A DNA stretch of 64,000 nucleotides from a phage, in sequence record PZ386974.1. One strand, 5' to 3'. The position numbers and the translations under genes are program-made. Shown one piece after another: positions 41,780 through 42,235 of the stretch. Position 1 is the first letter of the stretch. Each line of letters opens with the position of its first letter. Below the pieces are notes generated by a model that was given only the letters and a program-made list of their open reading frames with translations, had not been told where the DNA came from and did not search any database.

Positions 41780-42235
41780 TTATTTTAGATCTTCGGCCCA
41801 ATCTAGTTTTAAGGGTTCTTTGTATTCACGGTCGAGAATAACCGGAATAGCTACATCACCACTGAATGATAGTTGGCCAACGTTATATGATAACGTTATA
41901 TGTGGAGTGTAGTCGTCGAAATCATGAGTAGCACCTAAAGCTCGTGCATACTGATGACGACATCTAAGATATTCGGAATCAAGAACTAAAACCAGTACAG
42001 CGCCGTCGTCAGTTTTCCATACCTCAAAGTGTCCTGATTCGGCAACAGAATAACTACCACTGGATGTAGTATATGGTATGTTTACACGTGAATAACAAAT
42101 TGTTGAATGAAGCTTTTCACGTGGTACTGGATTAGGAATTCTTAATTTGCGCTGGAGGTCTTCCAGCGCATCAAGTGTTAATTCCGAAAATTTAGCTGCG
42201 ACGTAGAGGCCTTGTGAAAAGTCCTCAAATTTCAT
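41780..42235 (-). CDS. 57B: gp57B (T4 Acb1-type anti-CBASS phosphodiesterase position)
   Basis: 151 aa ORF immediately upstream of 57A, the T4 57B position and size. Confidence 0.7.

Follow-up and report, generated by a model that had tools for sequence, protein, structure and literature searches.

Homologues of the T-even counter-defence genes acb1 (57B) and ipI in a conserved segment of a Mosigvirus genome

The window analysed here, a stretch of 64,000 nucleotides, belongs to a Mosigvirus, an RB69-like T-even phage of the T4 family infecting E. coli, and is approximately 97% identical at the nucleotide level to phages a20 and APCEc01; by record classification the genus Mosigvirus holds both APCEc01 and RB69. 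Nucleotide comparison of the 6.8 kb around gene 57B finds matches in 811 phage records, the top ones being Escherichia phages a20, BEU50, and APCEc01, each aligning over the full length with approximately 97% identity. All genes of the segment that runs from 57B through ipI to the tRNAs lie on the minus strand, and the order of transcription is gene 4, gene 2, gene 3, gene 1, 57A, 57B, and ipI. An earlier reading made from the sequence only had placed 57B directly downstream of gene 2, but three genes (3, 1, and 57A) and approximately 1.7 kb intervene. The gene order agrees with that in T4, T2, RB69, and APCEc01. The features of this part of the window are as follows.

44769-45218, minus strand: gene 4 (from the open reading frame list, profiles, and the gene order of relatives)
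43945-44766, minus strand: gene 2 (from the open reading frame list, profiles, and the gene order of relatives)
43258-43842, minus strand: gene 3 (from the open reading frame list, profiles, and the gene order of relatives)
42470-43204, minus strand: gene 1 (Pfam DNMK, E 2e-97)
42235-42465, minus strand: gene 57A (Pfam GP57)
41780-42235, minus strand: acb1 (gene 57B), 151 amino acids, a 2H phosphoesterase by homology (PF23474, PDB 7T26, identity to T4)
42101-42109, minus strand: first catalytic HxT motif of Acb1, H43-S44-T45, corresponding to T4 H44/T46 (translation, alignment to T4, PMC9117128)
41894-41902, minus strand: second catalytic HxT motif of Acb1, H112-I113-T114, corresponding to T4 H113/T115 (translation, alignment to T4, PMC9117128)
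41737-41765, minus strand: early-type (sigma-70-like) promoter match upstream of ipI, GTTTACA-17-TACTAT with a TG extension, overlapping a hairpin (promoter scan, consensus match)
41415-41702, minus strand: ipI, encoding the 95-residue precursor of internal protein I (PF11634, PDB 2JUB, identity to RB69)
41646-41702, minus strand: capsid-targeting leader of IPI, residues 1-19, MKTYKEFISPVANVSTLTE (translation; structure 2JUB starts at A20)

Matches to the T4 late-promoter consensus TATAAATA are present at 42820-42827 (minus strand) inside gene 1, upstream of 57A and 57B, and as a pair of back-to-back boxes between genes 4 and 53, at 45230-45237 (plus strand) and 45245-45252 (minus strand).

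The 151-residue open reading frame that the sequence-only reading had assigned to the 57B position is found at exactly 41780-42235 on the minus strand, with its start sharing one base with the stop of the 57A homologue. The predicted product matches the Pfam family 'Anti-CBASS protein Acb1' (PF23474) with a score of 197.3 bits against a gathering cut-off of 27 (E 1.3e-58), an alignment that extends from residue 8 to residue 149 and spans the whole profile (positions 1-144 of 144). It also aligns with the Acb1 structures 7T26 and 7T27 (E 1.1e-58) over residues 9-148; this alignment of 140 residues is interrupted by just one gap, of one residue. Identity to T4 57B (NP_049750) is 85%, with 22 substitutions between the two proteins.

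T4 57B is Acb1, in which an HxT/HxT tetrad is formed by H44, T46, H113, and T115 (Hobbs et al., PMC9117128); the stacking partners of the bases are Y12, W74, F107, and W147, recognition of the adenine N6 falls to E141, and the lid is made up of residues 145-152 (PMC9117128). Residue numbers here are those of T4 minus one. Alignment of the 2H motifs, which had been proposed as the check on this assignment, finds both HxT motifs with their catalytic histidines, and Y11, W73, F106, E140, and W146 are invariant with respect to T4 Y12, W74, F107, E141, and W147. All nine published functional residues, four in the HxT tetrad and five that contact the substrate, are therefore kept in the 41780-42235 protein, and the C-terminal lid reads LDWAEDLK here as compared to LDWADDLK in T4. 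Together with the matches to PF23474 and 7T26 and the 85% identity to T4, this bears out the earlier proposal that the 57B position is occupied by Acb1.

Cleavage of 3'3'-cGAMP and cAAA, as well as rescue from CBASS, has been shown for T4 Acb1 (PMC9117128; preprint 10.1101/2025.11.20.689424), and in a transposon screen 57B was conditionally required on a CBASS host (10.1101/2025.11.20.689424). From the experiments with the T4 and FBB1 orthologues we infer a corresponding enzymatic activity for the 41780-42235 protein: the two HxT motifs would cut the 3'-5' bond of the cyclic di- and trinucleotides of CBASS, and the linear product would no longer be able to activate the CBASS effectors.

The gene is under strong constraint. 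Relative to T4 and T2 the proportion of synonymous differences (pS) in acb1 is 0.67-0.70 and dN/dS is 0.064-0.077 (Nei-Gojobori), and because synonymous sites are saturated while dN/dS is low, the identity of Acb1 to its T4 and T2 counterparts reflects purifying selection rather than recent transfer. A tblastn search of 50,697 phage records finds Acb1 matches in 1470 records and IPI matches in 291, and these counts indicate that Acb1 is near-universal in T4-like phages, whereas IPI is one of several alternatives.

The next gene downstream of acb1, after a gap of 77 bp, is ipI. Its product matches the Pfam family IPI_T4 (PF11634) with 169.7 bits (gathering cut-off 25, E 1.3e-50), residues 20-95 covering profile positions 1-76 of 76, and is identical at 72 of 76 positions to PDB 2JUB (E 5.8e-42), the NMR structure of mature T4 IPI*. 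The description of IPI as near-identical to T4 holds with 88% identity over the full length and 94.7% in the mature part, the leader being 63% identical. All 95 residues are identical to those of RB69 IPI, when the over-long annotated start of the RB69 gene is set aside. The PF11634 and 2JUB matches and this complete identity to RB69 leave the ipI position occupied by the restriction-inhibitor gene, as had been suggested.

The cleavage site follows MKTYKEFISPVANVSTLTE and precedes ATL, that is, it lies between ...LTE and A, and the leader has the form MKT[FY]xEF... with an (L/I)xE site. As described for this system, the 19-residue N-terminal leader would target the protein into the prohead and be clipped off after ...LTE, and the 76-residue mature IPI* would be injected with the DNA, where it would block a GmrSD-type type IV restriction enzyme that cuts sugar-modified hmC DNA. 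In comparison with T4, the mature part has a dN/dS of 0.026 (pS 0.53) and the leader one of 0.31 (pS 0.52).

Four residues distinguish RB69 IPI from T4 IPI, and the RB69 protein protects its phage against GmrSD and the enzymes related to it (PMC6024577); the DNA of RB69 carries arabinosyl-hmC and not glucosyl-hmC (PMC6024577). The T4 internal proteins Ip1, Ip2, and Ip3 each inhibit a single, particular variant of GmrSD (PMC12373910). The inhibitory activity of the IPI encoded at 41415-41702 is one that we infer from the experiments with the T4 and RB69 orthologues, and its range would be narrower than 'type IV restriction' in general, because the GmrSD enzyme of UTI89 still restricts RB69 (PMC6024577).

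A scan for late boxes finds no T4 late-promoter consensus directly upstream of ipI, and any late expression of the gene that packaging requires would thus presumably be by read-through. The early-type match that does lie upstream of ipI resembles a second one upstream of trna.4 (see below): both have GTTTACA, a 17-nt spacer, and a TG-extended -10 element within a hairpin of 8-9 bp. T4 has the same architecture of promoter and hairpin upstream of ipI and trna.4, with different stem sequences.

Taken together, we are highly confident that 41780-42235 is Acb1 and 41415-41702 is IPI, and that the two lie in the conserved 57B-ipI segment of Mosigvirus.

Four small open reading frames lie between ipI and the two tRNA genes that mark the downstream end of the block, and an Rfam scan of 37000-46000 finds nothing beyond these two tRNAs.

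41382-41410, minus strand: early-type promoter match upstream of trna.4, TTTACA-17-TATAGT with a TG extension, 10 of 12 positions, overlapping a hairpin (promoter scan, consensus match)
41159-41344, minus strand: trna.4 homologue, 61 amino acids, 82% identical to T4 Trna.4
40795-41157, minus strand: trna.3 homologue, 120 amino acids, acidic (pI 4.55), 38-42% identical to T4 Trna.3
40508-40798, minus strand: trna.2 homologue, 96 amino acids, acidic, 86% identical to T4 Trna.2 over 87 aligned residues
39988-40503, minus strand: ORF171, 171 amino acids, acidic, the same gene as RB69ORF151c and T2 gp275 (T2_138), 88% identity
39835-39908, minus strand: tRNA-Met(CAT) (ARAGORN and Rfam RF00005)
39752-39828, minus strand: tRNA-Arg(TCT) (ARAGORN and Rfam RF00005)

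The sequence-only reading had described the region 39988-41344 as holding small uncharacterised open reading frames. The four reading frames are real, but judged by sequence comparison they are orthologues of named genes of T4, T2, and RB69 and are not new. Neighbouring genes either touch or share 1-4 nt, and the series continues on the same strand into tRNA-Met and tRNA-Arg; this arrangement, with the early-type promoter match upstream, suggests that the small reading frames and the two tRNA genes form a single early unit. Searches of the four products against Pfam, NCBIfam, and PHROGs identify no characterised family, and three of them are acidic, with pI 4.5-4.7. In the literature on trna.2, trna.3, and trna.4 we found a DRT1 pull-down and a paper on SegB homing and nothing else. 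The T4 sponge Sequestin (Y16Q) was also considered, and none of the results connects it with the locus.

The trna.4 homologue is hydrophobic (GRAVY 1.23), with two hydrophobic stretches in hydropathy windows, and is probably embedded in the membrane with two predicted spans; it belongs to phrog_1692, a PHROG without a function label, and tblastn of the 50,697 phage records finds it in 786. The trna.3 homologue starts at an ATG at 41157 that is preceded by a GGTGAG ribosome-binding site and is the fastest-diverging member of the block, with a dN/dS of 0.33 and 38-42% identity between genera, as against 80-88% for its neighbours. Its identity to the matches in the phage records is bimodal, with 134 of 750 matching at 80% identity or more and 616 at less than 60%, and it is absent from T2. 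Relatives of the trna.3 homologue fall into the precomputed Pfam family PF26894, and those of the trna.2 homologue into PF27001.

The trna.2 homologue is 80-86% identical to its T4 and T2 counterparts (pS 0.61, dN/dS 0.10-0.13) and is found in 800 of the phage records; its AF2 model, built from 15 close sequences, has a pLDDT of 52.5, too poor for a structure search. ORF171, which is absent from T4, occurs in 564 of the records and belongs to a family of 1060 clusters at 50% identity. It contains an invariant motif, W20-E-N-D-G-D-N-Y-K-T29 (WENDGDNYKT), on the N-terminal beta-hairpin of a confident AF2 model, and a search with this model turned up neither a solved structure related to it nor a relative whose function is known. 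The family is without a Pfam model, and ten of its distant members have no Pfam match. As a group trna.2, trna.4, and ORF171 have dN/dS values of 0.10-0.18 and are present in 564-800 phage records.

Beyond the tRNAs are homologues of the T4 stable RNAs rnaC, at 39128-39266 (minus strand, identical to T4 rnaC at 138 of 139 bases), and rnaD, at 39273-39392 (minus strand, 86.8% identical to T4 rnaD), lying between ORF114 and a terminator-like hairpin. rnaC is far more conserved than the nearby coding DNA, where pairwise nucleotide identities are 67-87%, and its predicted fold is stable (z = -4.56) and includes a T-arm like that of a tRNA. In the Rfam scan of 37000-46000 neither RNA matches a family, and the literature lists their roles as undefined (PMC3014915, PMC9697503).

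The leader of IPI recurs elsewhere in the window. A search of the whole window with the expression MK[STA][YF]x[ED][FY] finds five reading frames, compared to approximately 0.03 expected from a back-of-envelope estimate; all of these are on the minus strand and were identified by the leader expression.

41415-41702, minus strand: IPI
38538-39002, minus strand: ORF154
30525-30806, minus strand: ip5-like reading frame
29407-29721, minus strand: leader-bearing reading frame, one of two paralogues
29052-29381, minus strand: leader-bearing reading frame, the other paralogue

The window thus encodes at least five putative injected proteins. The reading frames at 29052-29381 and 29407-29721, with leaders MKTYQEFITE and MKTYKEFIAE, are paralogues in phrog_3966, which has no function label, and the one at 30525-30806 is ip5-like and belongs to phrog_3499 (internal head protein). 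ORF154, of 154 amino acids, starts with MKSYAEFLTE, a T4-type capsid-targeting leader, and has matches in 512 phages, being 'hypothetical' in all records sampled. At the same slot RB69 encodes an unrelated protein of 146 residues that has only the 10-residue leader (MKTYAEFLTE) in common with it, and the DNA of the two phages is approximately 98% identical up to the terminator-like hairpin and unrelated beyond. As far as the two sequences go, this is the leader-plus-variable-cargo pattern of internal-protein cassettes, and ORF154 probably encodes an internal protein that is injected but has escaped annotation, its gene occupying such a cassette slot just beyond the tRNA and rnaC-rnaD cluster.

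The locus is mosaic among close relatives. T4 has ipI, trna.4, trna.3, and trna.2 followed by eight tRNAs with segB, and no ORF171. In T2, ip5 and ip7 replace ipI, trna.3 is missing, and ORF171 is kept. The layout in RB69 agrees with that of the window except for one additional gene, for an internal head protein, located between 57B and ipI. According to a preprint, the ipI slot of phage Bas37 holds another gene, whose product counteracts McrBC and resembles the T4 internal proteins in its packaging leader alone.

Identities to T4 and T2 also differ along the locus. The flanking core proteins are 58-59% (gp57A), 62% (gp1), 64-65% (gp3), and 77% (gp2) identical, and within the segment the values are 85% for Acb1, 88% for IPI, 82% for Trna.4, 80-86% for Trna.2, and 88% for ORF171. 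The idea of a transfer arose from this difference, with 80-88% in the segment from 57B to ORF171 versus 58-65% in the flanking 57A, 1, and 3. Recent horizontal transfer of 57B, ipI, and trna.2 is ruled out by pS values of 0.53-0.70 with dN/dS of 0.03-0.13; a more recent exchange may have involved ORF171 and trna.4, where dS is lower, at 0.6-0.8. Nei-Gojobori estimates for the core genes are dN/dS 0.22 with pS 0.62 for gp1, dN/dS 0.49 with pS 0.46 for gp57A, and dN/dS 0.11 for gp3, so that Acb1 and mature IPI are more constrained than gp1 and gp57A, two of the three neighbouring core genes measured (gp3 being at 0.11). This constraint fits an enzyme with an invariant small-molecule substrate and an inhibitor locked onto a particular target.

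With 77 bp between them, acb1 and ipI are two known anti-defence genes within approximately 1 kb, the spacing and number (at least two) by which islands are recognised in the manner of AntiDefenseFinder. Anti-defence islands in T4, together with guilt by association and the co-localisation criterion, have already been published (PMC11724313). What the adjoining small genes do is a separate question, and it was proposed from the sequence that, lying in a hotspot, they are candidates for additional inhibitors.

A plausible account, which falls somewhat short of being probable, is that the small reading frames form the leader of the tRNA operon and serve a purpose that has nothing to do with defence; possible examples are host take-over, a membrane or superinfection function (trna.4), and tRNA or stable-RNA metabolism. 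The close packing of the four genes, which lead straight into tRNA-Met and tRNA-Arg here and likewise into the tRNAs of T4, T2, and RB69, agrees with such a unit; a target that is itself conserved would agree with their wide occurrence and low dN/dS, and the two predicted membrane spans of the hydrophobic trna.4 product fit a membrane role. However, nothing found here points to a specific function of this kind, and the genes have been individually dispensable in evolution, T2 being without trna.3 and T4 without ORF171, within a tRNA region that T4 is reported not to need for its development (PMC2330249).

That the reading frames of 39988-41344 are instead early-expressed anti-defence inhibitors that share an anti-defence island with Acb1 and IPI we regard as rather unlikely. 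Their neighbours acb1 and ipI are proven counter-defence genes in related phages, T4 has comparable islands (PMC11724313), and the leader-bearing ORF154 sits just past the tRNAs. The early-type promoter match directly upstream of the block and the small acidic products of three of its four genes are in keeping with early inhibitors, as is the variable gene content of the locus in close relatives (ip5 and ip7 without trna.3 in T2, no ORF171 in T4, the extra gene in RB69), and the slot of ipI in Bas37 has recently yielded an anti-McrBC factor. The divergence of trna.3 between genera points the same way. In contrast, trna.2, trna.4, and ORF171 are widely conserved and under strong purifying selection, which is unusual for protein inhibitors engaged in an arms race; none of the small genes falls in a characterised family of Pfam, NCBIfam, or PHROGs, the structure search with the ORF171 model leads to no protein of known function, and the trna.2 model is unusable. 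To call the block the protein-coding leader of a tRNA operon would fit it just as well.

The most direct connection to a defence system concerns trna.2. T4 Inh and Trna.2 were the sole T4 proteins enriched with active DRT1 relative to an RT-dead control, and the authors left the Trna.2 enrichment without follow-up (PMC13275509). The trna.2 homologue at 40508-40798 could thus bind DRT1, a reverse-transcriptase defence system, and is a candidate on that ground, but Trna.2 could as easily be a trigger of DRT1 or a bystander as an inhibitor. ORF154 (38538-39002) is a further candidate, as a possible injected internal protein. That at least one uncharacterised gene around Acb1 and IPI is a new counter-defence factor is a tentative proposition, on the doubtful side, and to regard the small reading frames as inhibitors by virtue of their position in a hotspot is possible and a reasonable hypothesis, at which we leave it.

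For the two identified genes the position is clear. Acb1 and IPI are already known counter-defence genes, down to the published RB69 allele of IPI, and our main finding adds nothing new to the textbook T-even counter-defence genes or to the clustering of anti-defence genes already described for T4. Its practical value lies in annotation, with 57B still labelled 'RNA ligase' and its neighbours 'hypothetical' in public records including RefSeq, and the comparison also names a few conserved early genes, together with one probable injected protein, as candidates for anti-defence activity.

LigT-type 2'-5' RNA ligases have a 2H fold. That the 57B-position protein is an RNA-repair enzyme or RNA ligase of the LigT/2H family instead of an anti-CBASS nuclease is very improbable: the PHROG 755 description, the RefSeq labels of 57B in T4, T2, RB69, and APCEc01, and the 2H fold common to these ligases and 57B all speak for it, but the label derives from fold-level similarity, the cyclic-nucleotide contact residues of 57B are all conserved here, the curated Pfam family is named Acb1, the transposon screen found 57B conditionally required on a CBASS host (10.1101/2025.11.20.689424), and the opposite result has been published for T4 57B. 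In the databases the name 'RNA ligase' has been carried over from a resemblance in fold, and the entry should read Acb1.

The identification of Acb1 and IPI places both proteins close to well-described systems. Acb1 is within one residue of the length of its T4 counterpart, shares its HxT/HxT tetrad, base-stacking aromatics, adenine-reading glutamate, and C-terminal lid, and occupies the same genomic position after 57A; none of the 22 substitutions falls at a published functional residue, and the overlap of the 57B start with the 57A stop is 4 nt in T4 and 1 nt here. The Acb1 of Erwinia phage FBB1 provides a solved structure (7T26/7T27) of a protein that is homologous, as judged by alignment, to the 41780-42235 product. 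With the LigT/2H phosphoesterase superfamily it has in common two HxT/S motifs on a 2H fold, but the substrates of the Acb1 family are cyclic oligonucleotide immune signals, and Pfam lists the family separately as PF23474. IPI is identical to that of RB69, and its mature part differs from T4 IPI*, the injected inhibitor of GmrSD from E. coli CT596, at four of 76 positions (I/V, A/V, H/Q, and N/T) with the same ...TE/A processing site; the second internal-protein gene that RB69 has between 57B and ipI is not in this window. The trna.4, trna.3, and trna.2 genes of T4 are arranged and oriented in the same way from ipI to the tRNA genes, with identities of 82%, 38%, and 86%, and RB69 has all four small reading frames, as here, whereas T4 is without the 171-residue gene and T2 without trna.3.
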